A program made the position numbers and the translations under genes. A model generated the notes under the pieces. The model saw only the letters and a program-made list of their open reading frames with translations, searched no databases and was not told where the DNA came from. Source: an uncultured Desulfobacter sp. (GTDB lineage Bacteria; Desulfobacterota; Desulfobacteria; Desulfobacterales; Desulfobacteraceae). Taken from it: a stretch of DNA of 64,000 nucleotides. Where the stretch lies: the NCBI GenBank assembly GCA_963665095.1, contig OY762069.1, forward strand, positions 5,696,001-5,760,000, read 5' to 3'. Below, piece by piece: positions 14,461 to 34,620 of this stretch (position 1 is its first letter; the number at the start of each line of letters is the position of its first letter).

Positions 14461-14610
14461 ATTATTATCTTCAAAAGGGTTAATCTGGCCTGCCAAACTA
14501 TCACACCTCATTAGCCATTTCAAACTTTTATTTTATTTCTAATATTTTTTATAAAATAAATTTTAATTGTGAGTCTGCTCTAAATATTACATAGCTTAAA
14601 AAATTAATAC

Positions 14611-14639
14611 TTGACTATAAGATTAGTTGAAACTAATAT
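14611..14639 (+). promoter_or_regulatory. sigma70 promoter overlapped by a palindromic operator
   Basis: TTGACT-17 nt-TAATAT; perfect ATTAGTT-GA-AACTAAT at 14622-14637. Confidence 0.6.
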
Positions 14640-14676
14640 GCCGTGACAATATATCAATTGCTTTTATGGAGGAGAT

Positions 14677-14817
14677 ATGGCACCCTTTATTCCAATCGCT
14701 TGTGGTCTTGCCACCGTACTTACCTGTGCCCTTGCCGTGGAAACAGGCAAGGGGACTAAAAAAACCATTGAACGCAGAAAAAGAAGAAATGCCAGAAAAA
14801 CTGGATCCCGAAGTTAA
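14677..14817 (+). CDS. 46-aa small membrane protein (not in the ORF track)
   Basis: GGAGGAG RBS; MAPFIPIACGLATVLTCALAVETGKGTKKTIERRKRRNARKTGSRS*: hydrophobic N-terminus, basic tail. Confidence 0.65.
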   Translation: MAPFIPIACGLATVLTCALAVETGKGTKKTIERRKRRNARKTGSRS

Positions 14818-15028
14818 AAAAGAGATCGCTAAAATCACCATGACCGCCAGTTTAGGCGTGACCGTGATCACAGCGCCTTTTTTAAAAAAGAACAAAACTC
14901 TGAAAAATATCCATACCGGTGCCGGGGTATTGCTAGTGGGCAGTGCCCTGTGGCATCATTTTCTTTACCACTCTGAAAAAAAAGCAAAAAAGGCGATTCC
15001 TGCAGAACCGGAAACAAAAAAAGCCTGA
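14789..15028 (+). CDS. Small 2-TM His-containing membrane protein
   Basis: TM1 ASLGVTVITA, TM2 IHTGAGVLLVGSALWHH; ATG 14789 overlaps the small ORF. Confidence 0.65.
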   Translation: MPEKLDPEVKKEIAKITMTASLGVTVITAPFLKKNKTLKNIHTGAGVLLVGSALWHHFLYHSEKKAKKAIPAEPETKKA

Positions 15029-15284
15029 CGATTCTCCCGGCCCACTGATTCATGGTCAAAAATACTGTCCCTTGGGCTGGTTCGGCCGTTCCCTGATAAA
15101 TCTGGTACCAGGTGCCATGTCGGACCAACCCTTTAAAATTTCATACAGGTATCTGCATGTGAGCACCCGGATGTCATGATGCGGCTTTTTAACTTAGTTT
15201 AAAAAATAAAACTAGCAATCACAGACATTTATAAAAAATCAGCCCATGTTAGCGGTGATTAAAATATATAATAAAATTAACGCG

Positions 15285-15313
15285 TTGACAAATAAGATGA
15301 CGGGTTTTATGAT
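15285..15313 (+). promoter_or_regulatory. sigma70 promoter
   Basis: TTGACA-17 nt-TATGAT upstream of 15387. Confidence 0.7.
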
Positions 15314-15386
15314 ATTGATCATGGGAAATATCCCTTTGGTAATTTCCATGAGTCAATAAAAAGATGTCAAGACAAAGGAGGAAATT

Positions 15387-15569
15387 ATGTTTTATCTGCC
15401 ATTGACAGCATCTCCCCTTGGCTGGATCATCCTTGGAGCCGGCGGGTACGCCCTTTATAAAGCCGGCAAGAGAAAAGGCCAGGATGAAGCAGCTGCATCC
15501 CAGATCACGGAAATTCCAAAAGAGGATGATAAAACCAAAACCACCACAGCCAAAGGAGCTAAATCATGA
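15387..15569 (+). CDS. Small Gly-rich membrane protein (FezA-like)
   Basis: PLGWIILGAGGYALYKAGK; RBS AGGAGG. Confidence 0.7.
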   Translation: MFYLPLTASPLGWIILGAGGYALYKAGKRKGQDEAAASQITEIPKEDDKTKTTTAKGAKS

Positions 15570-15835
15570 GTGTACCTGTAGTTGCGCATCCCTTGGGATG
15601 GATTGTTCTCGGCGCCGCCGGCTTTCTCACCTATAAGGCAGGAAAAAAAGCCGGTCTGGAAAACAGCCAGGATGTCACCAAAACCAGTTTGTCCGACCGA
15701 ATGGTCAAAGGAGCAATGAAAACCGTTTATAAAACCCAGAAAAATGTTTCCGAGGCCTTTGGAAAAACAAAAGAAAAATACGGCACCATGTGGTCAGAAG
15801 CCAGGGAAGAAGCAGAGGCAAAGCCAGCCAGCTAG
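15566..15835 (+). CDS. Small Gly-rich membrane protein with C-terminal amphipathic helix (FezA-like paralog)
   Basis: PLGWIVLGAAGFLTYKAGK; ATGA coupling; WSEAREEAE. Confidence 0.72.
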   Translation: MSVPVVAHPLGWIVLGAAGFLTYKAGKKAGLENSQDVTKTSLSDRMVKGAMKTVYKTQKNVSEAFGKTKEKYGTMWSEAREEAEAKPAS

Positions 15836-15933
15836 AAATTTGGCATGCTTGAGTGCTGATCTCCCCAGAAATAGAGCTTAGCACCCCCCTGCGTTTGAAC
15901 GGCTCGCAAGAGAAGTTCATGCCCACAACATTT

Positions 15934-16686
15934 TCAGGCAGTCCGGACGATGACTGCGCCAGCCTTTTCCGGCGTAAGAAAAAGGCGCAGTCCTCCCGGG
16001 CTTGATATGGTCACAGGTTCAGTATCAGGCCCGTGACCCTGAAGAGAGGTTGCCTGATCAATGGATTCCAGATACAGAGAAACACCGACCTTCACCCCAT
16101 GGGTCTCCAGATGCTGAACGCTTCTGGGACCGCCCATCAGCTCTGTCACTTCAAAGGCCACGCCTTTTTTTGCAAAATAGAACTGGGTCAGACCCTGGTT
16201 GGGATAATTGCCCCAGATTTTGGCCGCCTCCCCTTCTGACAGCCGGGTTCTTTCCCGGCCGTTGATCAGGGTCACATAATCCATATGCGGCATGGACCGG
16301 ATAAAACGGATATTTTCGTCATCAGGCAGGCCCAATCGCTCCAGGGCTTTTTCAAGAAAGCGACCCCCGGAATGGATCTCAATATGGCCCTTCTGGCCTT
16401 TTTCCATTTGTGCCAAAGGAATTTTTTCGCCGGATTCCAGATGTATATATAATTTCATCACAAGACCTGCGGGAATAATCACATCCCCCTTGGTCCCGTG
16501 CACCCGCACTGAATAAAAGTTGACTTCCTGGTCATGGCGAATGATCTTTGCCCCGGGAAACAGCCCCATATGTTTCAGCCATTTCTCCACATGGGAGTTG
16601 GTGACCTGGAGCAAAACAAGTTCGGTGTTTACCGGTGCATCAATCAATGACGAATAGATATTTCCATCTTTAGGCATGGTGATCAT
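15934..16686 (-). CDS. Multi-domain FeoA-family protein
   Basis: Three FeoA-like units (LKHMGLFPG, LERLGLPDD, LETHGVKVG; LSEGEAAKI, LTPEKAGAV); overlaps the ATPase end. Confidence 0.75.
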   Translation of the reverse strand: MITMPKDGNIYSSLIDAPVNTELVLLQVTNSHVEKWLKHMGLFPGAKIIRHDQEVNFYSVRVHGTKGDVIIPAGLVMKLYIHLESGEKIPLAQMEKGQKGHIEIHSGGRFLEKALERLGLPDDENIRFIRSMPHMDYVTLINGRERTRLSEGEAAKIWGNYPNQGLTQFYFAKKGVAFEVTELMGGPRSVQHLETHGVKVGVSLYLESIDQATSLQGHGPDTEPVTISSPGGLRLFLTPEKAGAVIVRTA

Positions 16687-18787
16687 TGTCCTGTTTTGTA
16701 GTTTCCGGAATCATGGCCCGCTGCTCCCTCATTGCGGCATAGCCCAGAATCCCCACGGTGCTTGCATTGTGCAGAATAGCAGCGGCCACAGGTTTGAGCC
16801 ACCCCAAAGAGGCCATCAGCAGAAATGACGAATTCAGGGAAACTGCCGATACAAAGGACTGTTTAATGGTTCCCTGGCAGCGCAGTGCGATCAGGCGCCC
16901 GGTGAGCAGGCAGTTCAGGTCCTCCTTGAGCAGAATCACCTGAGCCGACTCCTTGGCAAGATCCGCCCCCGATGGCAGGCAGATGCCCACATCCGCCGAT
17001 ACCAGGGCAGGCGCATCATTCACCCCGTCTCCGGTAAAGCCTAGGATACAGCCTTCCTCCTTGAGCCGGGCAACAATATCAGCCTTATCCTCGGGCCTGA
17101 GATCTGCGTACACGTCGTCCACATCCGGCAGATATTGGGCCAGGGCCTTTGCCGTACGTTCCGTATCCCCGGTCAGAATTACTATTTTCTTAATGCCTGC
17201 GGCCTTGAGCCCGGAAAGCACGCTACACGCTTCCGGTCGAAGCTCATCCCGCAGACCCAAGACCCCTTCGAGCATCCCGTCCCGGGCCACATAAAGCAGG
17301 CTTTTTCCCTCCTCTTCAAAGGCCTGGGCCTCTTTGTCTGCGCCGGAACAGTCAATGCCTTCGTCGTCCTCTATGAAATGGCGGCTTCCCACCAGGACGT
17401 TGAGATCGTCAATATAGGCAGAGACACCATGTGCCACGATAAAGTCCACCTGGCTGGTGGGAGAAAATTCCAGATGTCTTTCCCGGGCCGCACCCACCAC
17501 GGCCGCTGCCACGGGATGTGCGTAATGCTCTTCCGCAGAGGCAGCCAGTGCCAGCAGCTGATCACTGTCAAGCCCGTTGACACTGACCACGTCCGTCACC
17601 TGGAGTTTGCCTGAAGTCAGGGTACCGGTTTTATCAAACACCAGGGTGTCCACCCGGGCCAGACTGTCCATGGCCTGGGCACCCTTGAGCAGCACCCCCT
17701 GCCGGGCCGCCGTGTGCATGGCCACCCGCACAGCCACGGGGCTGGACAGTTTAATAACGCAGGAGTAGTCCACGGTGAGTACGGCAGCTGCCTTTTCCAG
17801 ATCACGGGTAAGTGCAAACAGACCCACACCCAGCCCGAAAGTAACAGGCACCAGCTTATCCGCCAGCTCATCGCTTCTCTTCTGGGAATCGGATTCATAC
17901 CGCAAAGAGTCTTCCAGGAACTTTGAAATCCTGGCCACTGAAGTTTCCGCACCTACACGCACGGCCTCAAATATGATACGTCCCTCTTCAATCACGGAAC
18001 CGGAGATCACCTCATCCCCGGGTTTGACATGAACCGGCACAGACTCTCCGGTCACAGAACTCTGGTTGACAGCCGCCTCGCCTTCCAGGACCCGGCCGTC
18101 CAGGGGAATCATCTCGCCGGGCCCCACCACCACCCGGTCACCAATGCCGGCCTCTTCAAAGGGGATCTGGATCTCCTGCCCGTCTTTTTCGATCCATATT
18201 TTATCAACCTGGGGCTTTAACAGGCTTTTAAGCAGGCCCGTGGTCCTTGTTTCACTAATTTTTTCAAAATACTCGCCCAGGGCCAGGAGAAAGACAATGG
18301 AGGCTGCGGTAAAATAGTCCCGCCGCCATAAAGAAAAGGAAACCGCAGCCGCATCCAGCACCTCCACCTTAACCTGCCGGTTCCAGAGACAGGCCACCCC
18401 GTCAATGATCACCGGGGCCGACAGCATCAGGGCCAGGGGTGCACCAAAGAGTTTGGGAAGAAAAAAACAGGCCAGGGCCAGGGCGCCTTTTGCCGTCAGG
18501 CCAAGAAGGGACGGCGGCGCCTTTCTGTCGTTTTTTCCGTTAAAGACATCCAGAGGCAGATCCTGGATGCAGCCAAGCACAGCAGACCGGGTCTCTTTAC
18601 GGCTGTCATATTGGATAATCAGGGAGGAGGCACGACTGTTGAGCCGGGCCGATTCCACACCCGGAATAATCTCCAGGGTGGCTTCCAGGTAGTCGGGGTC
18701 TAGGTCCGGATCTCGCAGGAACCGCCCTTTCAGCCGCATTCGGTTCGGCAGTTCGCTGACAATGGTCAAGGGACGGGTCAGGCTCAT
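16670..18787 (-). CDS. fezB: P1B-6-type ATPase, ferrosome FezB-like
   Basis: TM4 DYSC-xxKL, TM6 HNAST, N-terminal RMRL, TGES, DKTGT, GDGVND: the signature described for ferrosome P1B-6 ATPases. Confidence 0.8.
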   Translation of the reverse strand: MSLTRPLTIVSELPNRMRLKGRFLRDPDLDPDYLEATLEIIPGVESARLNSRASSLIIQYDSRKETRSAVLGCIQDLPLDVFNGKNDRKAPPSLLGLTAKGALALACFFLPKLFGAPLALMLSAPVIIDGVACLWNRQVKVEVLDAAAVSFSLWRRDYFTAASIVFLLALGEYFEKISETRTTGLLKSLLKPQVDKIWIEKDGQEIQIPFEEAGIGDRVVVGPGEMIPLDGRVLEGEAAVNQSSVTGESVPVHVKPGDEVISGSVIEEGRIIFEAVRVGAETSVARISKFLEDSLRYESDSQKRSDELADKLVPVTFGLGVGLFALTRDLEKAAAVLTVDYSCVIKLSSPVAVRVAMHTAARQGVLLKGAQAMDSLARVDTLVFDKTGTLTSGKLQVTDVVSVNGLDSDQLLALAASAEEHYAHPVAAAVVGAARERHLEFSPTSQVDFIVAHGVSAYIDDLNVLVGSRHFIEDDEGIDCSGADKEAQAFEEEGKSLLYVARDGMLEGVLGLRDELRPEACSVLSGLKAAGIKKIVILTGDTERTAKALAQYLPDVDDVYADLRPEDKADIVARLKEEGCILGFTGDGVNDAPALVSADVGICLPSGADLAKESAQVILLKEDLNCLLTGRLIALRCQGTIKQSFVSAVSLNSSFLLMASLGWLKPVAAAILHNASTVGILGYAAMREQRAMIPETTKQDNDHHA

Positions 18788-19203
18788 TGGGCCTGCCCTT
18801 CCGGGGTATCACAGGAAGATTCCGGTGCCTTTTTCATTATCCGGTCAATCATGTACCCGGCCCCGGCCAGGGCTGCGGCGGTAAGCCCGATGTCCAGAAG
18901 GGTTTTCTTCTCGGTCAGGGAGAGAATCACGGTGGCAGCCACCCCTTTGGCCAGGCCATTGGCCACGGCGGCGGATTTGCTCAGGGTGCCGTTTTGCACA
19001 TCCACCATATTTGAGCCGAGGGTGGCGGCAGAGGCGATGGTCACGGTGATGGCTGCAAACTCCCAGGCGGGAAACTGCTCCCGGGGTATTGGAATGGGGG
19101 CAAAAAGTGCCGGTCCTGGAACCGGGGTTACGGGTATCGGTGTTGTGTCTGCAGCCAGGAAAGGATGCTGAACCGGTGCCTGAACCGGGGATTGTATATT
19201 CAT
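18784..19203 (-). CDS. MamC-like Ala/Gly-rich membrane protein with Pro-rich N-terminus
   Basis: ATLGSNMVDVQNGTLSKSAA..LAKG; ATGA-coupled to the fezB-like gene. Confidence 0.6.
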   Translation of the reverse strand: MNIQSPVQAPVQHPFLAADTTPIPVTPVPGPALFAPIPIPREQFPAWEFAAITVTIASAATLGSNMVDVQNGTLSKSAAVANGLAKGVAATVILSLTEKKTLLDIGLTAAALAGAGYMIDRIMKKAPESSCDTPEGQAQ

Positions 19204-19329
19204 TATGATCTGCCTTGTATTTGTTTTCCTGAAGATTATAAGCCATTGCTTAAATCAGGAAATATATTACGACAGACAACCGGCGTAACGCAAGACAAAA
19301 TCAACTATTCTTTACACAAAGAACTATCT

Positions 19330-19596
19330 CTACTTTAACTGACTATCTTTACTCCCTCTTCTATTAATGCCGGTTGACGCTGTCCGGGAGGCCTCATGCT
19401 CGGTCTGGCAGTCCACGCACAACCTCACCCCGGGCAGCGCCTTTCTGCGACCTTCCGGGATCTCTTCTCCGCATATCTGACAGTGGGTGAGGCTTTCACC
19501 TTTAGGCATCCTGCTCCTGGCAAGGCTTACGGCGTCTTCCACACCCGCATCAATCTGTTCCTGTACGGCCCCGTCCCGGGCCCATCCAACAGCCAT
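19330..19596 (-). CDS. DksA/TraR C4 zinc-finger protein (YbiI-like)
   Basis: MAVGWARDGAVQEQID..CQICGEEIPEGRR..LCVDCQ..NRRGSKDSQL. Confidence 0.92.
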   Translation of the reverse strand: MAVGWARDGAVQEQIDAGVEDAVSLARSRMPKGESLTHCQICGEEIPEGRRKALPGVRLCVDCQTEHEASRTASTGINRRGSKDSQLK

Positions 19597-19609
19597 AATT
19601 CCCTTCCTA

Positions 19610-20572
19610 TCAGGACATGTTGTCCCAGAATGACCGGCTCTGATCTTCCATTGATCCTGCATTGGCCTGTCTGCCGGAGGATCTGTTATCGTTTTTCGTC
19701 CAGGCGGCGCCTGTGGACACGCCTGCACTCCGAATGCCGGTAAGCCGGGCCACCCGGTCCTCAATGGATGGATGGGTGGAAAAAAGGTTCATCATCTGCT
19801 TTCCGGTCAAAGGATTGACAATAAACATATGGGCTGTGGAGGGACTGGCATCCACCTGGGCACCCCTGCGGCTGAAACCGCCCAGCTTTGACAGGGCGGA
19901 CGCAAGGCCGTTGGGATTGCCGGTGATGCTTGCTGCCGTGGCATCGGCCAGGTACTCCCGGGACCTGGAAACCGCCATCTGGACAATCATGGCGGCGATG
20001 GGCGCAATCATGGAAACCACCAGCACGCCAATGAACCCAAGGCCGCCCTCGTCATCATCCCGCCCACCGAAAAAGGCAGAAAACCTGGCAATGGACGCGA
20101 TCCACATAATAGCGCCGGCCAGGGTGGCCACAATGGTGGAAATCAGGATATCCCTGTTCTTCACATGCCCCAGTTCATGGGCAAGGACCCCTTCAAGCTC
20201 TTCCTGGTTCATCATGTTCAAAAGGCCCTGGGTAACTGCCACCACGGCATGTTCCGGGTTTCTTCCCGTGGCAAACGCATTGGGCGCGCCATCAGGAATC
20301 AGATAGACCTTTGGCATGGGAAGGCCTGCCTGCCGGGCCAGACGCGCCACAGTATCATACACCCCCGGGGCATGGGACCGCTCCAGAGGCTGAGCCCGAT
20401 ACATTTTCAACACCATTTTATCCGAATACCAGTAACTGGTTATATTCATCACACCGGCAAAGATCAGGGCGATGAACATGCCGGTCTGACCGCCCAGCAG
20501 ATATCCTATAAACAAAAACAGCCCGGTCATGATTATCAGCAACATGCCGGTTTTAAACTGATTTGCCATCAT
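19610..20572 (-). CDS. htpX: Zinc metalloprotease HtpX (M48)
   Basis: PNAFATGR, HELGH, SRSREYLAD, STHP. Confidence 0.93.
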   Translation of the reverse strand: MMANQFKTGMLLIIMTGLFLFIGYLLGGQTGMFIALIFAGVMNITSYWYSDKMVLKMYRAQPLERSHAPGVYDTVARLARQAGLPMPKVYLIPDGAPNAFATGRNPEHAVVAVTQGLLNMMNQEELEGVLAHELGHVKNRDILISTIVATLAGAIMWIASIARFSAFFGGRDDDEGGLGFIGVLVVSMIAPIAAMIVQMAVSRSREYLADATAASITGNPNGLASALSKLGGFSRRGAQVDASPSTAHMFIVNPLTGKQMMNLFSTHPSIEDRVARLTGIRSAGVSTGAAWTKNDNRSSGRQANAGSMEDQSRSFWDNMS

Positions 20573-24011: not shown

Positions 24012-25007
24012 TTAAGGTACCCGGATTTTAAGATTGGCCGCCGGCTGACCGTTTTCAGTTATATCAATGATTTTTTTGGTGCCGATTTTTTCCATGATCT
24101 CTTTCATGGATTCGGTGTAGAGCAACTCCCATGCGGCCCCACCCTTTTCCCCGGCCTGGGCCAGAAGATTATTAAACCGCTGGGTTTTACCCTCTGCCGT
24201 TAAAATAACCTCCTGTTTATATCCCCTGGCCTGTTCCAGGGTCTCCATGGCGTCGGCTTTGGCTTTGGGCATGACTTCATTCCGATAGGACTCTGCCTCA
24301 TTGATATTTTTTTCCCGGTCAATGGAGGCTTTGACCACCTCGGAAAAATACTGGGCCACCCTGCCCGGCGGACTGATGTTGTTTATTTCCACAAAAGAGA
24401 CGCTGATGCCGGTTTCCAGCTGATCCAGCTTTGCCTGCAAGGCCTGCCGGATAAAACGTGCCACGGTCTGCTTGCCCCGGGTTAAAATCTCGTCAATGGG
24501 CATTCTTGCCATGCAGTGCAGAATGGTTTTGCAGGCAACATCCGTGAGCATGGTATCCGGATCTTTCACACAGAACAGATATTCATGGGGATTGAGCACT
24601 CGATACTGGATCACGCAGCTGACCATGGCCAGATTATTGTCCCCGGTAATGCAGTAGGAATCAAGACCCGTAGCCGCCTTAAAGCTGTCAGGGGACAGGT
24701 TCAGCCCCGTTGATTTTGTCACTTCCCAGAACGCCTCAATGGCCATGCGTTTAACCTGCCGGACAGCCACCTTTTCCACCTGGTCAACCGGCCAGGGCAG
24801 CCTGTAATGGATCCCGGGCTGAACAGTCTCATTGATAATGCGTCCGCAGCGCAGGTGTACACCGATCTCATTCTGGGAGACCGAATAGATCCCGGACAAA
24901 AGGTAGAGCAGAACAAGCCCTGCAAGAACCACCCTGGAAAAGATCCAGGCATGGCCAAGGGCCAGGTGAAAGGTACTGAGGAAAAAACCGGATTTTGCTT
25001 CATTCAT
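24012..25007 (-). CDS. HflK-like SPFH protein
   Basis: TM then PGIHYRLPWPVD, TGDNN, I.PP..V..F..V..A, INEAESY. Confidence 0.85.
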   Translation of the reverse strand: MNEAKSGFFLSTFHLALGHAWIFSRVVLAGLVLLYLLSGIYSVSQNEIGVHLRCGRIINETVQPGIHYRLPWPVDQVEKVAVRQVKRMAIEAFWEVTKSTGLNLSPDSFKAATGLDSYCITGDNNLAMVSCVIQYRVLNPHEYLFCVKDPDTMLTDVACKTILHCMARMPIDEILTRGKQTVARFIRQALQAKLDQLETGISVSFVEINNISPPGRVAQYFSEVVKASIDREKNINEAESYRNEVMPKAKADAMETLEQARGYKQEVILTAEGKTQRFNNLLAQAGEKGGAAWELLYTESMKEIMEKIGTKKIIDITENGQPAANLKIRVP

Positions 25008-25917
25008 GGCCAGGTTTATCCTGTAAATGTTTCAGCCGTCTGAAAAGATCGGAATCCGTGGACATGATTACCGTGCTCCTGTCATCCAGAATATCCTTGT
25101 ACAATTCCATGGATTTTAAGAACTCAAAAAATTCCTTATCCTTGGCATAGGCTCGGGCATAAATTTCAAGGGCCTTTTGATCCCCTTCCCCTTTCAAAAT
25201 TTCGGCCTGTTTAAAGGCTTCGGCCAGAATTTCTTTGGCCTGGCGGTTGGCTTTGGCCCGAATTTTTGTGGCCTCTTCCTTGCCTTCGGCCCTGAATTTT
25301 CGGGCCTCTTTTTCCCGTTCCGAGCGCATGCGGTTGTATACGGCGTCGGCCACCACAGCAGGGTACGCCAGTCTGCGCACGCCGATCGCAACCACCTCAA
25401 CCCCGTATCTTTCAGTGGCACTGGCATTGGTATTGCCCAGTATCCGCTGTTCCAACTGCTCAAGCTTTACCTTTGACGGGTCAGTATTGATGATATTGTC
25501 CAGCTTAAACGCACCTAAAACATTGCCCATCTGCGAATTCACCATGTCCGACAGTTTCTGAGTGGCAATCTGGCTGCTTAACAGCGACTGAAAAAACAGC
25601 AACGGATCTTTAACCCGCCAGCAGATATAACAAGTAATGATGATAGGATTTTTATCCCCAAGCAGCAGTTGAATGGGCTTGGTGTTAAAAATATGCGTCC
25701 GCCGTTCAATACGGTTCACGGTTTCAAGAAACCCGGGCCGTTTCAGGTGAAGTCCTGTGGCACTCATGGTTGCCACGGGTTTGCCGAACCGTGTGAGCAC
25801 CACATACTCCCGCTGGGATACCGTATATGTACAAAGCCAGGTCATCAGCAACGCAACAACAACCATGCCGAAAACCATATATTTGATTCTACCTTTTTTC
25901 ATGTTGGGTATGTCCAT
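25000..25917 (-). CDS. HflC-like SPFH protein
   Basis: TRFGKP, YGVEV, RMRSERE.EA..RAEG, GEGD, AY.KD.EFF.F.KS. Confidence 0.88.
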   Translation of the reverse strand: MDIPNMKKGRIKYMVFGMVVVALLMTWLCTYTVSQREYVVLTRFGKPVATMSATGLHLKRPGFLETVNRIERRTHIFNTKPIQLLLGDKNPIIITCYICWRVKDPLLFFQSLLSSQIATQKLSDMVNSQMGNVLGAFKLDNIINTDPSKVKLEQLEQRILGNTNASATERYGVEVVAIGVRRLAYPAVVADAVYNRMRSEREKEARKFRAEGKEEATKIRAKANRQAKEILAEAFKQAEILKGEGDQKALEIYARAYAKDKEFFEFLKSMELYKDILDDRSTVIMSTDSDLFRRLKHLQDKPGHE

Positions 25918-25938
25918 TCATTGATAGTCATTAACCAA

Positions 25939-27678
25939 TTACCGGATAAACTCTTCACCAAAATCCATCCAGACATCCGGGGTGCCCGCATCAGGATCTA
26001 CAATGATCTTGGTTTTATTTTTAAGCGCATCCATCATGGTTTCATGATAGATCCGTGACATGGATATCTGCTTTTCGGCCCGGGTGGACGGCAGGCGCAG
26101 TTCAAACCGTGTGGCCTTGCCCAGGGCCTGACTCAAGCGCATGACACTGTCTGCGGCGGCTGTCTGAACCTGGTTTTCCGCCCGGCCCCGGGAATCAGGC
26201 AATACATTGTTGGCATAGCTGATGGCCTGATTGATCAATTCCTGTTTTTTCTGAAATCCTGCCACCACATTTTCAAAGGATTTGGCAATGGAGATGGGCG
26301 GATGGATGTCTTTAAAATTGACGCTGATCAGCTCTATCCCGCTTTTGTTCTGATCCAGTACCGCCTGAATGGTCTGTTTCATTTTCTCCTGCAGTGTTCC
26401 GCGCTCGGTGGTGGCAATATCGTAAAATGTCTTTTTTGCAAAAAGGGAGACAGCCGCCCTGTGTCCGGTTTCATTTAGAAACATCCGGGCATCCGAATAA
26501 TTGTATAAATACAGGTATGGGTTGCTCACCCGGTAATGAAGAATAATGTACGGGTAAAAAAAATTATTGTCCCCGGTTAAAAACGCCTCCTCACTGCCGT
26601 GCTTAAGGGTCCAGATAAAGGCATTTGCTTCGTCACTGCTGACATTGCCGATGCTCAGCTTCTCAATGGTGAATGTAGAGACCTTAAACACCTTGTCCAC
26701 CGGCCAGGGCAGTTTCAAATGAAAACCCGGCAACACGACAGCCCCCTGATTCAATGGCTGACCAAACCGTTCAACAATGGCGGATTCATTGACCGCCACC
26801 GTATAACAGGCGGTTGATCCGTAAAGGCCGACCAGCACAACAAGCGGGGCGGTAAGGATGGCCCTGTAAAGCAGGGTCCCCTTCCGGCTGCCACCAAAAA
26901 TGCGGACCAGGAGCTGATGAAGCTGTCCGGACAGCTGTCGAAGAGTCTGCCTGCTGAACACAGACAGCAGCGCGGTTAGAAACCGGTATGAGTGAAGGGA
27001 AGAACCGTTTCTATCCCGGTACACCCGGTAGGCATTGACAAAGGTATCAAGGGCCAGACAAAGTATGATAAACCCGATGATCCCGGCCATCCATTTATCA
27101 AGGTTCACGCCCATGGCATAAAGAATCAGGCTGAATCCTGTCAAAAGACTTGCAAACATATCTGCCTTGGCATGCATACCGTCGGAGACCAGTCCAAGTG
27201 AGGCCTGGGCTCTACCGATATGTGTCTCAAAGGTGGAGACCAGAAATGAGGCAATGGAAAAAATGATAAAAATGATACCGGAGAGCAACGGATTTCGAAT
27301 AATGATCTCCCGGGAGACCAGAACCTCTTTAAATACCAGGCAGGAAATCCCGAGAAGCAGAAGGCCGATACATACCGAGGCGGCAATTTCCATACGGCTT
27401 ACGGGCGTGGCACAGGCCTGCTCACAATCAGTTTCAGCGGTTGCCCCCCTGGACCTGCCGGAAACCAGAATGGCAATACAAACCAGTGCACTGGTGGCAA
27501 TATCGGTAAAGCTGTGCCAGGCCTCGGCCAGGACTGCCAGGCTGCCGGACAGCCAAAAGACAACAAATTTGAGCCCGGCAAGAACAACATTCAAGCCAAA
27601 GACAATGGCTGCTGCTTTGGATGTACTCGACCACCTTTCTGAAGATCCTTGCACTATTTCACCATTATTACCCGCCAT
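25939..27678 (-). CDS. Cation diffusion facilitator TM domain fused to an HflK/SPFH domain
   Basis: N-terminal SGSLAVLAEAWHSFTD and SDGMHAKAD; C-terminal ERFG, PGFHLKLPWPVD, LTGDNN, IHPP. Confidence 0.85.
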   Translation of the reverse strand: MAGNNGEIVQGSSERWSSTSKAAAIVFGLNVVLAGLKFVVFWLSGSLAVLAEAWHSFTDIATSALVCIAILVSGRSRGATAETDCEQACATPVSRMEIAASVCIGLLLLGISCLVFKEVLVSREIIIRNPLLSGIIFIIFSIASFLVSTFETHIGRAQASLGLVSDGMHAKADMFASLLTGFSLILYAMGVNLDKWMAGIIGFIILCLALDTFVNAYRVYRDRNGSSLHSYRFLTALLSVFSRQTLRQLSGQLHQLLVRIFGGSRKGTLLYRAILTAPLVVLVGLYGSTACYTVAVNESAIVERFGQPLNQGAVVLPGFHLKLPWPVDKVFKVSTFTIEKLSIGNVSSDEANAFIWTLKHGSEEAFLTGDNNFFYPYIILHYRVSNPYLYLYNYSDARMFLNETGHRAAVSLFAKKTFYDIATTERGTLQEKMKQTIQAVLDQNKSGIELISVNFKDIHPPISIAKSFENVVAGFQKKQELINQAISYANNVLPDSRGRAENQVQTAAADSVMRLSQALGKATRFELRLPSTRAEKQISMSRIYHETMMDALKNKTKIIVDPDAGTPDVWMDFGEEFIR

Positions 27679-27970
27679 GTTTTAAAGTTCCTGATAAACA
27701 CCGTTTCCGGTATTCAATTGAATTGTATTCCTGACAGAACAAACAACATCGTATATCATCTGTCAAAATTTTTATCATCCAAGCTAACAAAAGTGTTTCA
27801 GCCTGTATATAGGCGTAAATAATTTTTATCTTTTTCCTGCAAAGTACGGCCTTCCCAGCTAAAACATGCTTGACATCCTGTCTGTCTATGTACTAAAGGA
27901 CCCTTAAATCCTCCACCCAGAAGGGTGGAAAAAATTTAAAAAACAGCATTTTTTTCATAAATAACTGACC

Positions 27971-28023
27971 AACGGCCACGAAGGCTTTGCAATGTATTTG
28001 CAGATTCTTCGTGGCCGTTTTTT
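27971..28023 (+). terminator. Leader terminator-like hairpin just before the ABC operon
   Basis: 13-bp stem AACGGCCACGAAG/CTTCGTGGCCGTT plus T-tract, ~17 nt before ATG 28040. Confidence 0.6.
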
Positions 28024-28039
28024 ATTTGGATATCGTGTC

Positions 28040-29080
28040 ATGAAACCCGACCATACAAGAAAACTTAACGTGTCAGGGGCCGGTTCAGGGATTCTTTTTA
28101 TCATTCTGGTTGCCACCGGTCTGTTCTGTCTTCGGGCCGGCTCATGCCAGGTGCAGTCCACCATGTTATTAAAAACCATTTCATCCCACCTTTTTCACTG
28201 GCCGGCCCCTGACACTATTCCCGCACTGAACCACACCATCATCTGGGAGATCCGGCTTCCCCGGGTTCTTTTGGCAATAGCTTCGGGTATCTGCCTGTCT
28301 GTTTCCGGTGTGGTGTTCCAGGGCTGTTTCAGGAATCCCCTGGTGGAACCCTATGTGCTCGGCGCCTCTTCAGGCGCTGCATTTGGCGCAGCCCTGGGTA
28401 TTGTTTTTCCCTCCTTTTTCCTCTCTGTACAGATCATGGCCTTTTTGTTTGCGGCCCTGGCTGTGAGCATGGCCTATGCCATGGCCCGGACCGGCCCTGA
28501 CACCCCGGTGGTGACACTGGTGCTCTCCGGCATTATCACAGGCTCGGTGTTTTCCTCCCTGGTAGGTCTGCTCAAATATCTGGCCCAGGATACAGCCCTG
28601 CGGGAGATCGTATTCTGGCTCATGGGCGGATTTTACTATGCGGGATGGCAGGAGGTGGGCATTCTGTTTGCAGTGGCAGCCGTGGGATTAAGCGTCATCT
28701 GGACCTCCGGTTGGAAACTCAATGTCATGTCCATGGGAGAGGAAGAAGCCAGAAGCCTTGGTATCCATCCGGGCAGAACCCAGCTGCTGCTCATCGGCCT
28801 TTCCACCCTGATGACGGCCGCAGCCGTGGCATCCACCGGTATCATCGCCTGGGTGGGCCTGATGATCCCCCATGCGGCCCGGATCATTGTAGGCCCGGAT
28901 CATCGCCGGGTGGTACCGGCTGCTGCACTCATGGGGGCAATCTATCTTATTCTCTGCGACACCCTGGCAAGAACCCTGACCTCTGCCGAAATCCCCATCG
29001 GCATCATCACCTCCCTGGCAGGCGCCCCCTACCTGTTTTACCTGGTCAGAAGCCGGGGCGGCCAGATGTTTGGAAGATAA
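28040..29080 (+). CDS. FecCD/BtuC-type ABC permease
   Basis: IRLPR, FRNPLVEP..LG.SSGA, EARSLG, GII.WVGL..PH..R, D.LART. Confidence 0.93.
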   Translation: MKPDHTRKLNVSGAGSGILFIILVATGLFCLRAGSCQVQSTMLLKTISSHLFHWPAPDTIPALNHTIIWEIRLPRVLLAIASGICLSVSGVVFQGCFRNPLVEPYVLGASSGAAFGAALGIVFPSFFLSVQIMAFLFAALAVSMAYAMARTGPDTPVVTLVLSGIITGSVFSSLVGLLKYLAQDTALREIVFWLMGGFYYAGWQEVGILFAVAAVGLSVIWTSGWKLNVMSMGEEEARSLGIHPGRTQLLLIGLSTLMTAAAVASTGIIAWVGLMIPHAARIIVGPDHRRVVPAAALMGAIYLILCDTLARTLTSAEIPIGIITSLAGAPYLFYLVRSRGGQMFGR

Positions 29081-29912
29081 CATGCTCAAAGTTGACCAGC
29101 TGACATTCTCATACGGCAAAAGCCTTCATCCGGTGCTTAAAAACATCAGCTTCCATATTCGCCAAGGGGAGTTATGTGCTCTTTTCGGCCCCAACGGAAC
29201 CGGAAAAACCACGCTGTTCAAATGCTGTCTGAAACTGCTTGTTCCGGACAGCGGCACAGTTTTCATCAATGGGAACAATACCTGCCGCATGAGTCCAAAA
29301 GAGATGGCCCGGAGGGTGGCCTATGTGCCCCAGGCCCACCAGTGTGCGTTCCCGTTTACTGTGCACCAGATGGTACTCATGGGCCGGACACCCCATCTGA
29401 ACCGGTTCTTCACCCCTTCAAAAAAGGACCGGGACATTGCCAGGCAGGCCATGGAGACCCTGGGGGTTACCCCTCTTTCAGAGACCCCCTTTAACCAACT
29501 CTCCGGCGGACAGCAGCAGATGGTGCTCATTGCAAGGGCCATTGCCCAGGAGACCGGACTGATCTTCCTGGATGAACCGGCTGCGGCCCTGGACTTTAAA
29601 AACCAGGTCAGCCTCTGGCAGACGCTCCAGGATATTGCTGCCCGGGGCACGGCCATCCTGGCCTGCACCCATGATCCCAACCATGTCTCCTGGTTCTGCC
29701 ACACCACCATGGTGTTAAACGACGCAGGCCTTCTTGCCAAAGGCTGTCCCGGGCAGGTGATGGACCAGCAGATGATGGATCAGATTTATGAAAACACCTG
29801 CCGGGTCAAAGATGTAGACGGACTTAAAATCATGATTCCCAAGGGGGTGACCCAAAATAGAGGCAAGATTGTTGACTTCCCCAAAGGACCGGAAAGGAAA
29901 AAGCACAAATGA
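29070..29912 (+). CDS. ABC ATPase (iron/cobalamin family)
   Basis: GPNGTGKT, LSGGQ, LDEP, THD. Confidence 0.93.
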   Translation: MEDNMLKVDQLTFSYGKSLHPVLKNISFHIRQGELCALFGPNGTGKTTLFKCCLKLLVPDSGTVFINGNNTCRMSPKEMARRVAYVPQAHQCAFPFTVHQMVLMGRTPHLNRFFTPSKKDRDIARQAMETLGVTPLSETPFNQLSGGQQQMVLIARAIAQETGLIFLDEPAAALDFKNQVSLWQTLQDIAARGTAILACTHDPNHVSWFCHTTMVLNDAGLLAKGCPGQVMDQQMMDQIYENTCRVKDVDGLKIMIPKGVTQNRGKIVDFPKGPERKKHK

Positions 29913-30778
29913 ACTATACGGATATCGACTGGAATAAGGCATGGGCCACAGAAACCGAGTTGTGGAACCAGTCTGCAGGGAAACCCTGCCAGGGATTCTG
30001 GGAGGATAAACAATCCGCCGAGGTCTTTGCAAAAAAAGATATTGAGCAGCACAGAGACAGACTGGAAAAGACCCTGGCCCATCTGACCATCACGCCGGAT
30101 ACAAAGGTGCTGGATATCGGGGCTGGCCCCGGCAACCTGGCCATTCCCATGGCCAAAAAAGCGGCATGGGTCACAGCTTTAGAGCCATCCCCCGGCATGA
30201 ACGAGGTTATGGCGGACCAGATTGCCGAGCACTGCGTTACCAACATCACCCAGATCCGGGCGGCCTGGGAGGATGTTCCAATGGAGGACCTTGTCCCGCC
30301 CTATAACCTGGTGGTGGCGTCTCTGTGTCTTGGCATGCCCGACCTTGCCGGGGCCATTGAAAAGATGAATCAGGTGTGCTGCGGCGAAGTGGCCCTTTTC
30401 TGGCATGCGGGCATCCCGGAATGGGAGAATATGCCACGGGCCCTGTGGCCGGATATTTTGGGCCGGCCCTATCACGGCGGCCCAAAATCAGACATTATTT
30501 TCCAGCTCCTTTATCAGATGGGCATTTACCCGCAGGTCAGTGTCTTTTCCAACTCCTTTTGCGAAATTTTTGATTCCATGGAAACGGCTGTGGGCTTTTA
30601 TGCCCGCAGATTCCAGATTCTTGCCCCGGAGCATGCGCCCATTGTGGAAGCCTATCTTGACCAGCACTGCAAACGGGATGAGCGGGGCCTGGTTCACCAG
30701 TTCACCCATCACATCATGAAACTGTCCTGGCAGCCCGTTGAGCGCTCTGTCACCAGCACCAGAGGAGATAAACCATGA
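29909..30778 (+). CDS. Class I SAM-dependent methyltransferase
   Basis: VLDIGAGPG, LEPS; translationally coupled. Confidence 0.85.
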   Translation: MNYTDIDWNKAWATETELWNQSAGKPCQGFWEDKQSAEVFAKKDIEQHRDRLEKTLAHLTITPDTKVLDIGAGPGNLAIPMAKKAAWVTALEPSPGMNEVMADQIAEHCVTNITQIRAAWEDVPMEDLVPPYNLVVASLCLGMPDLAGAIEKMNQVCCGEVALFWHAGIPEWENMPRALWPDILGRPYHGGPKSDIIFQLLYQMGIYPQVSVFSNSFCEIFDSMETAVGFYARRFQILAPEHAPIVEAYLDQHCKRDERGLVHQFTHHIMKLSWQPVERSVTSTRGDKP

Positions 30779-32004
30779 CACCATACAGAATAAAGGCCCC
30801 CCTTTTCCAACTACGAAGATGGCGTACAGCTGCGGCAATCCTAATACTGATCTTTACAACCGGAATTCAGGTGCAGGCATCCCAAGAGGAGGCCTTCACC
30901 ATAACAGACTTCCATGGCCGCCGTGTTAAAATTCCAGCCCAAATCAACCGCGTGGTCACCATCAGTGACGGCATGATCGCAGGCGTCATGACCTGCCTGG
31001 GCGAGGCAAAAAAAATTGTGGGGATCGGATCGGCCTGCCTGCCGAAAATCTGGGAGTATGACATTCCTTCTACCATGGGCGCCAGCCATGAATACAGACA
31101 GGGCATGAATCCTGTATTCTTCCTTAATCCATTTTTGGCGGACCTGCCTCTGGTCAGCCAGTTTGGATCCGGAATCAACTTTGAGGCGGTTGCAGGTCTT
31201 AAACCGGACCTGATCATCATACGCACCGGCTCCTGCACCCTCTCCTATTCCGAGGATATTCTGGAAAAAAACATCCGGCTGCTGGCGTCGCTAGGGGCGC
31301 CCTTAGTGGTGCTTCACGGTCCCAATACCTTTGGCAAACCTGACATTGCCACGTTAAGCCGGGAAATTGAACTTTTAGGCAAAGTTTTTCAGAAAGAAAG
31401 ACGGGCCAAAGAGGTGGCGGATTTTCTTTTTCACACGGTCAGCGACATCAGGTCCCGCACCGCAGACATTGCCCCGGAAGCACAGAAGCGGGTATTAATG
31501 TTAGGACTCTCCCCCACGGCAAGGGAAAAAGGCGGGGCCGGCCATGTCAAAGGGGAAAAAACCATTCAGACCTATCTGCTCAATGAATTTGCCCATGCCC
31601 GCAATGCCTACTCCGGAACAGGGGCCTGGAATATTCTCAATGCAGAACAGCTCATCGCCCTGGACCCGGATCTCATTGTCCTTGTGACCGCCTGGGGCTA
31701 CCACCCCCCGGAAGAACTCTATGAAGCCCCCTATTATAAAAATCTGCAGCACCTGCGGGCCGTGAAAAACCGGGCAGTCACCGCGCTGCCCTGGACCCCG
31801 TGCAATTGTGAAAAACGGCTGGAATACCCCATTGATGTCATGGTCATGGCCAAGGCAGTCTATCCGGAAAGGTTTGAGGACATCGAGCTCTGTTCCTGGC
31901 TGACACAATTTTACATAAAGGTTTACGGCGTGGACTCAAAGACGGCTCAGGAACTGGTTGCCTGTCAGTGGATGGACTGGGCCTGCAAAGGAGATAACAA
32001 ATGA
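30775..32004 (+). CDS. Periplasmic substrate-binding protein (helical-backbone metal/cobalamin family), Cys-rich
   Basis: TD..GR.V.IP....RVV, N.E....L.PDL twice, WTPCNC. Confidence 0.85.
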   Translation: MTPYRIKAPLFQLRRWRTAAAILILIFTTGIQVQASQEEAFTITDFHGRRVKIPAQINRVVTISDGMIAGVMTCLGEAKKIVGIGSACLPKIWEYDIPSTMGASHEYRQGMNPVFFLNPFLADLPLVSQFGSGINFEAVAGLKPDLIIIRTGSCTLSYSEDILEKNIRLLASLGAPLVVLHGPNTFGKPDIATLSREIELLGKVFQKERRAKEVADFLFHTVSDIRSRTADIAPEAQKRVLMLGLSPTAREKGGAGHVKGEKTIQTYLLNEFAHARNAYSGTGAWNILNAEQLIALDPDLIVLVTAWGYHPPEELYEAPYYKNLQHLRAVKNRAVTALPWTPCNCEKRLEYPIDVMVMAKAVYPERFEDIELCSWLTQFYIKVYGVDSKTAQELVACQWMDWACKGDNK

Positions 32005-32630
32005 ACGAGTTATACGAACAGCGTAAGGAATTTTTCAACCAACGGGCCGCCGGATGGCTGGACAACCATTATAAAGGGCCTGAAACAGGCAATTATGACC
32101 TGTATGCAGACCGGATAAAAGAGATTGTGGCGGCCCTGGCGCTGAGTGCCCACAGCCGGGTGCTGGATGCCGGCTGCGGATCCGGGGTTCTTGTGCCCTA
32201 TCTTCTCGACCGGTTAGGCCCTGACGGCCGAATCATTGAGATGGATTTTGCCGAAGAGATGATCCGGGAAAACAAAAAACACCATACAGACGACAGAATC
32301 TCCTTTATCTGCTGTGATGCGGCCCGGATGGAGATGAATAAAGCAAGTCTGGATGCCGTGATATGTTTTGCAGCCTTTCCCCACTTCAGTGCCCCTGAGG
32401 AAGGTCTTAAGCGCATGTCCAACGCGTTGAAATCCAAAGGCCGACTGGTCATTGCCCACCTGATGTCATCCAAGGAACTGGCTGACCACCATCACTCCTT
32501 CACCCCGGTCAGCAACGACAGGCTTCCGGAAAAAGAGGTGATAACAGCATGGATCACCGCCTGCGGGCTTCGCATCGACACTTTTGAAGACCGGCCAGGC
32601 CTCTATCTGCTGGCCGCGGTCAAACCCTGA
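32001..32630 (+). CDS. Class I SAM-dependent methyltransferase
   Basis: VLDAGCGSG, FPHF, LVIAH..S, HHH. Confidence 0.85.
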   Translation: MNELYEQRKEFFNQRAAGWLDNHYKGPETGNYDLYADRIKEIVAALALSAHSRVLDAGCGSGVLVPYLLDRLGPDGRIIEMDFAEEMIRENKKHHTDDRISFICCDAARMEMNKASLDAVICFAAFPHFSAPEEGLKRMSNALKSKGRLVIAHLMSSKELADHHHSFTPVSNDRLPEKEVITAWITACGLRIDTFEDRPGLYLLAAVKP

Positions 32631-32661
32631 ATTGCAACCTGAAAAAGGAGAAAGAGAAATT

Positions 32662-34620
32662 ATGACACACCACTATCTTCGTTGTTTTCTGATCTTTGCC
32701 CTGATGTTCCTTATGACGGTTCCGCCATTGGCTTTAGCGGACGAAACCGACAAGGATGTCACGGTGCTTGAAGATCTCACCATTACAGACCGCCCCATTA
32801 TCCAGGGCAACATAACCGACACCTATGGCAGTATGAAAACCGTGATCACCCAGGAACAGCTGGATGACCTCAATGCCCAGGATCTTGAAACCGCGCTTAA
32901 AACCACCCCGGGGGTGAGCATGTCCCGGTACAATCCTGTGGGATCATTTGGCGGTGCAGACGGCGGCGGTGTATTCATCCGCGGCATGGGCTCCAGCCGT
33001 CCCGGCGCGGAGATCAAAACCATGGTGGACGGGGTTCCCATGTTCATGAGTGTCTGGAATCACCCCCTGCTGGACCTGATGTCCATTGACTCCTCCCAGG
33101 CCATTGAGGTGTATAAAAGCCCCCAGCCCCAGTATTTTGGCAATGCCGTGGGCCTGATTAATATTGTACCGAAGCGGATTTCCCAGCCGGGCTTTTTTAC
33201 CTCAGCCCAGGCTGCCATAGGCAGCTATGACACCCACATCATCAAGGCGGAACATGGTGGAAATGTGAATGGGTGGGATTATTACATTGGCGGCGGGTTC
33301 CGTGAATCTGACGGTCACAGGGACCATGCTGACGGTGAACTGAAAAATATCTATGCCCGTATTGGCAGAAAATTCTCCGACCACTGGGATTTCAGCGTTT
33401 TCACCATGGCAAATGACAACTGGGCCAATGATCCGGGCGCTGAAGATGCAGATATCTCAGAACGCCAGGGTACCTATGAAACCCGCGTTTTTATGGGTAC
33501 GGCCACCCTTGCCCATGAGTATGAAACCGCCAAAGGGGAGATTAAACTGTATCGCAGCAGTGGCGAAGGGGACTGGCTGGACCAGCCCACAAGCACCGCC
33601 GGCGTGACCGAGGATCTGTTCAATGATTTCCTTTTTTACGGGGCAAAGGTCAAGGAGACCCTGACCTTTGGCAATGGTCTGTCGCTTCTGGCCGGAGCGG
33701 ACTGGGACTACACGGAAGGGGATTATACCCAGGAATACAGTGACGGGGCCTTTGATGAATGGGACGGGGAGCATTTTGACATTCTGTCTCCCTATGCCGC
33801 GCTCTCCTGGAGAATCGATATGGGCAGTGCTGTCATCACCCCGTCACTGGGAACCCGGTTCTATTCCCACAGCCAGTATGATGATGAATGGGCACCCCAT
33901 GCCGGACTGAAGGCATCCTTCGGACGGTTTGAGGCCCACATGGGATACTCCCGGGGCGTGGTCTATCCCGGACTTGAAGTGGCGGTCATGTGCCAGGATG
34001 TTCTGCCGATTCTTGGGGACTCCTGGAAGGATCTGGACCCTGAAACCGTGGATCATTACGAGGTTGGCGTTTCCGTCTCCCCCACCCGGCAGACCCTGCT
34101 GGACCTGGTTTTCTTCTATGAGGACGGGAAAAACCGGTATGTGATTGTGCCCTATGCCAGTGGCGTCATGCCCCATTATGACAACGTGGAAGAGTTTACC
34201 ATCAGAGGCCTTGAAGCCACTGCCACCTGGCAGCCAGTTTCAGACTTCTCCCTGTTTGCCGGTGTGACCCTGCTGGATCCGGACCCCGGGGATCTTCCCT
34301 ATGCACCTGAAACCACGGTAACCGCCGGGGCAAACTATAAATTCCTTGAACGGTTCAAATTCAATTTAAACGCCTCCTATGTATCATCCATGCATGTCAG
34401 CGCCCAGATCCGTAAAAAAGGGGATGACAACAGCACCACTGTGGACAGTTTCTTTCTTGTAAATGCAAAGCTCACCTATGACCTGCCTGTAAAAGGTGCT
34501 GATTACAAGGTCAAGCTGTTCCTGGCCGGTGAAAACTTAACGGATGAAGATTATGAATACCAGTCCGGATATCCCATGCCGGGCATCAACTGCATGGCAG
34601 GCATCCAGTTTTCCATGTAA
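32662..34620 (+). CDS. TonB-dependent outer-membrane receptor
   Basis: Signal peptide, plug (L...PGV, IRG, VDGVP, IEV.K), NLTDEDY, C-terminal aromatic residue. Confidence 0.9.
   Translation: MTHHYLRCFLIFALMFLMTVPPLALADETDKDVTVLEDLTITDRPIIQGNITDTYGSMKTVITQEQLDDLNAQDLETALKTTPGVSMSRYNPVGSFGGADGGGVFIRGMGSSRPGAEIKTMVDGVPMFMSVWNHPLLDLMSIDSSQAIEVYKSPQPQYFGNAVGLINIVPKRISQPGFFTSAQAAIGSYDTHIIKAEHGGNVNGWDYYIGGGFRESDGHRDHADGELKNIYARIGRKFSDHWDFSVFTMANDNWANDPGAEDADISERQGTYETRVFMGTATLAHEYETAKGEIKLYRSSGEGDWLDQPTSTAGVTEDLFNDFLFYGAKVKETLTFGNGLSLLAGADWDYTEGDYTQEYSDGAFDEWDGEHFDILSPYAALSWRIDMGSAVITPSLGTRFYSHSQYDDEWAPHAGLKASFGRFEAHMGYSRGVVYPGLEVAVMCQDVLPILGDSWKDLDPETVDHYEVGVSVSPTRQTLLDLVFFYEDGKNRYVIVPYASGVMPHYDNVEEFTIRGLEATATWQPVSDFSLFAGVTLLDPDPGDLPYAPETTVTAGANYKFLERFKFNLNASYVSSMHVSAQIRKKGDDNSTTVDSFFLVNAKLTYDLPVKGADYKVKLFLAGENLTDEDYEYQSGYPMPGINCMAGIQFSM

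Follow-up and report, generated by a model that had tools for sequence, protein, structure and literature searches.

A gene in which a cation diffusion facilitator (CDF) metal transporter is fused to an HflK-type SPFH subunit, followed by its own hflC and a second, unfused hflK, is found in a 64,000-nucleotide stretch of the genome of an uncultured Desulfobacter sp. (GenBank assembly GCA_963665095.1, contig OY762069.1, positions 5,696,001 to 5,760,000; hereafter, the window, in whose coordinates positions are given). This CDF::HflK triplet is a real, conserved and undescribed variant of HflK/C-type systems, with a built-in and exchangeable metal transporter. No paper on a CDF-, ATPase- or SO_0444-HflK fusion was found in a literature search conducted largely outside subscription journals and supplements.

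The fused protein and its operon

Positions 24012-27678 are filled exactly by three open reading frames (ORFs) on the minus strand, namely, the fusion gene (25939-27678; 579 aa), an operon-specific hflC paralogue (25000-25917; 305 aa), and an operon-specific second, unfused hflK paralogue lacking both of the His residues of the fused subunit considered below (24012-25007; 331 aa). The fusion gene and hflC are separated by 21 bp, while hflC and the second hflK overlap by 8 bp. Band_7 was found in all three products. The 305-aa product scored above the TIGR01932 hflC cut-off (177.5 vs 134.4) and the 331-aa product above the TIGR01933 hflK cut-off (200.8 vs 159.4), bearing out the hflC- and hflK-like genes that an initial annotation had placed behind the fusion.

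Pfam matches of the 579-aa protein include Cation_efflux at residues 25-218 (63.1 bits; cut-off 26.6) and Band_7 at residues 293-485 (71.6 bits; cut-off 23.6), with no CDF cytoplasmic domain among them. TIGR01933 (hflK) covers residues 292-563 with a score of 155.9, slightly under the cut-off of 159.4, and TIGR01297 scores 63.6, under the cut-off of 82.35. The CDF transmembrane domain comprises six helices (residues 18-222; 27013-27627, minus strand) and contains, on TM2 and TM5, the site A motifs H55-xxx-D59 and H169-xxx-D173, i.e., the HD-HD quartet. As such, the CDF membrane domain with intact HxxxD/HxxxD sites described initially is indeed present.

Residues 223-290 form three helices that lead into the SPFH part, in place of the canonical CDF cytoplasmic C-terminal dimerisation domain. 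In a predicted model (118-sequence alignment; pLDDT 84), the six CDF helices are followed by two short helices (residues 232-261) at the site of the missing CDF cytoplasmic domain and a helix at residues 264-288, after which come the SPFH strands and a long coiled coil. Comparison of the model with the PDB matched residues 14-224 to YiiP (8f6k; Z 23.2, rmsd 2.6, 196 aligned) and residues 273-562 to HflK (7vhq_E; Z 17.3, rmsd 12.8, 265 aligned); none of the PDB matches listed joins the two halves. Pfam, model and structure matches thus agree with the earlier proposal that the dimerisation domain is replaced by an additional membrane helix and an HflK-like SPFH/coiled-coil region. The seventh membrane helix (residues 264-288; 26815-26889, minus strand) is the equivalent of the HflK anchor, and the HflK-type SPFH1/SPFH2 and coiled-coil region (residues 291-552; 26023-26808, minus strand) contains W356-xxx-H360 and D457-x-H459-PP. 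Because the N-terminus of CDF proteins is cytoplasmic, the presence of seven helices would give the SPFH part a periplasmic location, like that in HflK. Prediction of a complex of the fused HflK part, HflC and the second HflK with Zn scored 0.43 and a control in which the second HflK was replaced scored 0.65; this was not used as evidence.

Conservation and distribution of the fusion

A homologue search revealed 219 proteins at E<=1e-20 among 8000 candidates, with 120 being listed. When the domain-architecture check suggested with the initial annotation was run on these, both Cation_efflux and Band_7 were present in 119 of the 120 (38-81% identity, excluding the protein of the window itself). 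Across 118 aligned sequences (three listed proteins being left out), H55, H169 and D173 were invariant and D59 nearly so. Of the 150 listed 50%-cluster representatives, 129 were full-length, and 117 of these retained HD-HD. Judged from such residue conservation, site A is under selection.

Gene order was read by tblastn. Fusions account for 61 of 65 GTDB loci, in Thermodesulfobacteriota, Planctomycetota, Acidobacteriota, Verrucomicrobiota, Spirochaetota and others; the order fusion-hflC-hflK was seen at 57 of these 61, with the other four ending at contig edges. Among 77 metagenome loci, 41 present the full order and 27 are cut. At loci L139, L140, L142-144, L146, L148 and L150, a shorter fusion (~530 aa) that keeps WxxxH and DxHP occurs with no hflC or hflK and with a U32 peptidase gene directly downstream. 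At another locus, an extra SPFH gene behind the operon (L127:8909-9919) resembles the HflK part of the fused subunit.

The distribution of the fusion is patchy. It was found in 9 of 121 genomes of the family and 7 of 20 of the genus. Scoring of 3-4 candidates per genome across the order and the phylum found it in 1 of 300 and 9 of 400 genomes, respectively, with these 10 matches corresponding by contig and position to loci already in the sample. Correlation of identity matrices between the three genes (0.48-0.74; 37 loci) was calculated with no shared-ancestry control and was not used as evidence.

The possibility that the fusion is an assembly artefact, or that the operon is ordinary housekeeping hflKC, was also considered. 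Most carriers are metagenome-assembled genomes, as would suit an artefact. Against this, the fusion is conserved across relatives and exists as a single open frame in more than 100 independent sequences, single-contig genomes included, while separate hflKC genes are found in the same genome. This explanation is already refuted by the conservation data, and is given next to no credence.

Separation from housekeeping HflK/HflC and FtsH

The same genome contains a second copy of the operon (C1:1747158-1750854; fusions 32-34% identical), a canonical hflK-hflC pair (C1:2.025-2.027 Mb), and a gene for a standard CDF. It also contains two ftsH genes, the nearest of which lies 79 kb from the operon together with its own SPFH pair, and hflX, at 1.09 Mb, in agreement with the earlier remark that neither ftsH nor hflX is nearby. 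More broadly, ftsH lies within the flanks at only 1 of 61 GTDB loci and 0 of 77 metagenome loci, and hflX at none. When the top hflK loci from 50 carrier genomes were considered, 30 of 30 fell with canonical HflK, such that at least 30 of the 50 carriers have a separate canonical hflK.

The HflK tree shows three separate groups, namely, window-type fused (100/97), trailing (100/100) and canonical (97/91) HflK. In the unrooted HflC tree, all 24 metal-operon HflCs stand apart from 13 canonical HflCs across one branch (95/94). The operon, with three genes rather than the canonical hflK-hflC pair and with clades separate from those of canonical HflK and HflC, is not simply the housekeeping FtsH regulator. 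Of the two outcomes that the initial annotation had named as overturning its proposal, neither this one nor absence of the fusion from relatives was borne out. A divergent SPFH gene pair, with long branches in the SPFH tree, neighbors the second ftsH and a GGDEF-like gene (L078:7926-13017; G000:C1:5.638-5.643 Mb).

R185 of Escherichia coli HflK is reported to contact FtsH (PMC13220708). In the corresponding column, none of 24 fused subunits of the window type has Arg, as compared to 26 of 32 canonical HflKs and 13 of 14 ATPase-fused subunits, with trailing HflK presenting eight Arg and four Lys among 22. R141/E142 are absent even from the canonical HflK of the same genome. As ATPase-fused subunits keep the Arg, loss of R185 is a weak sign.

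An exchangeable transporter slot and predicted periplasmic His residues

HflK-like frames of 700-1050 aa were also seen in carrier genomes. Twelve regions with such frames comprised five P1B-ATPase::HflK fusions, with a heavy-metal ATPase, five SO_0444/ArsP_1::HflK fusions, with a Cu/Zn exporter, and two already-known CDF fusions. The ten ATPase/SO_0444 loci show the order X::hflK-hflC(-hflK), with one being cut by a contig end after hflC. A search for long HflK-type proteins (553-1761 aa), using the HflK part of an ATPase fusion as query, yielded 124 proteins, the 120 listed including 72 P-type ATPase, 31 ArsP_1/SO_0444, 16 CDF and one multi-SPFH proteins, counts that are biased by the query. 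Five of 53 plasmid records were opened, revealing one CDF::HflK-hflC-hflK set followed by a heavy-metal ATPase, one canonical pair, and three TM::HflK-hflC-hflK-ATPase operons. CDF fusions are found at more than one place in the HflK tree, and a single origin of all CDF::HflK fusions was rejected (p-AU 8e-5, for a group named after earlier trees had been seen). Other architectures encountered were a 780-aa protein (P0358) with three Band_7 stretches in one chain and, immediately after ATPase::HflK operons, small N-anchored ORFs that matched nothing in Pfam (L205:2508-2969; L208:2346-2834).

Because two unrelated metal transporters fill the same slot elsewhere, the operon likely encodes a cage dedicated to metal transporters, rather than the usual protease regulator. 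The initial description of a three-subunit SPFH cage with a built-in metal pump can thus be retained as far as a metal-specific role is concerned, given the preservation of site A and the two other transporter families in the same slot. The word 'pump' has to be dropped, as a CDF is a secondary transporter and not an ATP-driven pump.

Sequence comparison of the SPFH parts included three plasmid operons (L217, L218 and L220), standing in for PA2437-39, the SPFH genes found with the metal transporter gene hmtA in Pseudomonas aeruginosa. The H459 column is occupied by His in 24 of 24 window-type, 14 of 14 ATPase-fused, 11 of 12 SO_0444-fused and 3 of 3 hmtA-operon-type first subunits, as compared to 2 of 32 canonical and 0 of 33 trailing HflKs. 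WxxxH in the SPFH insert is seen in 24 of 24, 14 of 14, 0 of 12 and 3 of 3 of the same four groups, respectively, and in 0 of 32 canonical and 0 of 33 trailing HflKs. These conserved His residues of the fused subunit (H360, H459) may bind metal.

Genomic neighborhood and candidate clients

No neighbor beyond the three operon genes is conserved family-wide. Metal-homeostasis genes (feoB, DtxR, NicO, ABC-3, MgtE) recur near the operon in some lineages. In the window, a 313-bp intergenic region (27679-27991, no strand) separates the fusion gene from a divergent set on the plus strand (27992-34620) encoding a BtuC/FecCD-type ABC permease, an ATPase, two methyltransferases, a binding protein and a TonB-dependent receptor, given here as context only. 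The divergence from a TonB/ABC uptake operon initially emphasized is therefore present, although a functional link is weakly supported and was set aside, since the arrangement recurs in only one of the three nearest tree relatives (same-genus L167). A riboswitch or promoter in the intergenic region was likewise rejected, with no Rfam match and promoter signals at chance level. A long inverted repeat with a T run behind it, resembling a terminator or attenuator, lies over the start of the ABC permease gene (27970-28026, plus strand); it is similar in L167, occurs at a single locus in the genome, and has no Rfam match. At 3.4-12 kb from the operon (12148-20572, minus strand), there are two HMA_2-containing P-type ATPases, a FeoA-domain gene, and an M48 (HtpX-like) protease. 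At loci L012, L013, L015, L025, L041, L091, L095, L096, L113 and L129, the operon is found among Nitro_FeMo-Co and MinD/Mrp-type 4Fe-4S ATPase genes.

Exported phosphatases were considered as clients. Metallophosphoesterases lie within 2.5 kb at 15 of 61 GTDB loci, where ~1 was expected (a post hoc comparison of loci that are, as kin, not independent, with the scan covering 135 of 179 cluster representatives). At all six same-genus loci of the second-type operon, an alkaline phosphatase (two loci) or a MetallophosN/C enzyme (four loci; two assigned by Pfam, two by likeness) is encoded directly downstream, and the second operon copy of this genome follows a 5'-nucleotidase. In a subclade of 16 rows, 14 have an exported-phosphatase neighbor, these being of four types and all with signal-like N-termini. 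As family-wide clients, exported phosphatases were rejected following their near absence from new loci, as detailed below; metalation of such enzymes is, by analogy, a possible lead for the subclade only. At L047, L050-054, L057 and L058 (Desulfatiglandales, Acidobacteria), the operon and exported phosphoesterases occur together with a lipoprotein-like protein of 230-270 aa that matched nothing in Pfam.

Possible functions of the operon

The explanation that we favor, and consider somewhat probable on the basis of the sequence features described above, is that of a dedicated HflK/C-type ring in which the CDF would export metal into a periplasmic chamber for local handling there. The fused CDF::HflK, its own HflC and the plain HflK would likely assemble into this ring, with HflC alternating with K-type subunits and the plain HflK diluting the bulky fused subunit. 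The ring would keep the transporter in its own membrane patch, receive metal on the periplasmic side, and stand in for the lost CDF cytoplasmic domain as an oligomerisation scaffold. The metal, most likely Zn2+ and possibly Fe2+, Co2+ or Mn2+, would enter the chamber in exchange for protons, with H360 and H459 binding or relaying it. The purpose would be local metal handling in the periplasm, which in one subclade would probably extend to supplying exported phosphatases. A bolder version, drawn by analogy, would be a modular 'metalation chamber', namely, an SPFH cage with an exchangeable transporter (CDF, P1B-ATPase or SO_0444) in its wall and a His lining that loads exported enzymes, such as alkaline phosphatase or 5'-nucleotidase; this we regard as conceivable yet unlikely.

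Several observations weigh against the favored explanation. Eight related metagenome loci contain the fusion with a U32 peptidase in place of hflC and hflK, and locus L124, with no hflC in 0.8 kb, may be another fusion-only case. In the second CDF-fusion lineage, the His pair is mostly missing (H459 column, 3 of 8; WxxxH, 2 of 8). No phosphatase is found at the window's own operon or at the 10 ATPase/SO_0444 loci (24 of 48 ORFs scanned), and when new loci were put to a pre-set phosphatase test, the outcome was negative (1 of 48, a short cytoplasmic-type enzyme, with 0.55-0.7 expected), 29 of 77 loci having been dropped as near-duplicates. The N-terminal membrane domain of the hmtA-type first subunit does not correspond to a recognised transporter, and since HmtA is described as an importer, the direction of transport differs among members. 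Nor does site A fix the metal, as HD-HD, the commonest CDF quartet, is reported in both Zn and Fe clades (PMC5703985). Finally, the report on PaFlo, a patchily distributed three-SPFH operon, describes no pronounced phenotype upon deletion of its genes under the conditions used (PMC13086221).

Other functions were weighed against the same data. The operon could serve in plain detoxification, with the CDF exporting excess metal and the SPFH ring only clustering, stabilising or protecting the CDF, with no delivery. Both the CDF and the SO_0444 family carry an exporter annotation, the patchy distribution resembles that of an accessory trait, a heavy-metal ATPase accompanies the copy on the Aquibium plasmid, and no client gene is conserved family-wide. 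Still, the genome already encodes a standard CDF, the periplasmic His residues are conserved specifically on the transporter-bearing subunit, recurring neighbors include the uptake genes feoB, NicO and ABC permeases, and the related Pseudomonas cluster is reported to be induced by zinc lack, not excess. On balance, detoxification is considered unlikely. The opposite direction, in which the chamber traps periplasmic metal that the transporter carries inward under starvation, as proposed for HmtA, would be in line with the grouping of the fused subunit with hmtA-operon-type first subunits (98/92) and their shared His pair, with the window's operon being divergent from an uptake operon and feoB/DtxR/NicO recurring nearby in some lineages, and with a report of one CDF letting Zn in (PMC6440370). 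Yet, CDFs are described as exporters in general (PMC8341793), the grouping involves long branches, and the uptake neighbors are lineage-limited, such that scavenging is judged quite improbable.

A specialised FtsH regulator, in which the ring would still surround FtsH, a zinc protease, with the CDF either adjusting metal locally or being itself a regulated substrate, is similarly given little probability. Each of the three subunits is homologous to HflK/HflC, two ftsH genes are present in the genome, and the FtsH-contact Arg persists in nearly all ATPase-fused subunits and partly in trailing HflK. By contrast, ftsH is almost never found in the fetched flanks, most of the carrier genomes considered have a separate canonical hflK, and no window-type fused subunit has Arg in the R185 column that most canonical HflKs retain. 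Moreover, the active site of FtsH is cytoplasmic, the wrong side for exported metal. The three-gene set is ready for cryo-EM and transport assays, and could provide a lead on how periplasmic enzymes obtain metal.

Comparison with known systems

The nearest published relative is PA2435-PA2439 of P. aeruginosa, comprising hmtA and three SPFH genes, which likewise combines an SPFH triplet with a metal transporter and is patchily distributed. There, the transporter is a separate P-type ATPase gene, HmtA, described as an importer, whereas here a CDF is fused to the scaffold. PA2437-39, of the HflC/HflK family, are reported to be up 9.0-14.4-fold together with hmtA in a znuA mutant, with a weak Zur site (PMC4542158), and the proteins to rise in Zn depletion (PMC11761036). 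To judge from published descriptions, this triplet is probably the PaFlo5-7 operon of strain PA14. The word 'ATPase' is absent from the main text of the PaFlo report (PMC13086221). The hmtA-type layout of a long membrane-domain HflK, HflC, a second HflK and a metal transporter in the operon is found here; a separate P1B ATPase gene and the PA2439-type N-terminal domain are not. L217, L218 and L220 have the same WxxxH and H-PP His pair as the window type and group with metal-operon HflCs, and hmtA-operon-type first subunits fall together with the fused subunit of the window type in the tree (long branches, as noted). That the N-terminal domain of hmtA-type first subunits is a degenerate CDF was rejected, with the CDF profile having no match in three hmtA-type proteins. 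The present system may offer an explanation for this zinc-regulated, phenotype-less SPFH triplet.

Relative to the E. coli HflK/HflC cage around FtsH (PDB 7vhp, 7vhq, 7wi3, 9cz2, 9paw), the SPFH1/SPFH2/coiled-coil fold and K/C pairing are the same, whereas here there are three subunits, one with a transporter, in separate clades and with no hflX/ftsH linkage, the fused subunit lacking R185. A probable second job for HflK/C-type cages, besides FtsH, can be named. YiiP/FieF, ZnT and other CDFs (Cation_efflux, TIGR01297) share the six-helix fold and the HD-HD site A; the fusion differs from them in having no cytoplasmic dimerisation domain, sites in which are reported to stabilise the YiiP dimer (PMC4995437), and in the SPFH subunit fused on. 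Human CDF-type ZnT5-ZnT6/ZnT7 are described as activating alkaline phosphatase (PMC5666860), and the TerC proteins MeeF/MeeY of Bacillus subtilis as metalating exoenzymes (PMC10550928). These are functional analogies only, with no SPFH cage; in the present family, the phosphatase link is one of genomic position and is limited to a subclade. A metalation chamber, if true, would be a bacterial counterpart of ZnT-fed secretory compartments. Lastly, the stomatin SPFH cage is reported to enclose transporters (PMC13724742; PDB 9zd2). In the system considered here, the client is covalently attached to the SPFH scaffold, and evolution has swapped that client among three unrelated metal-transporter families.

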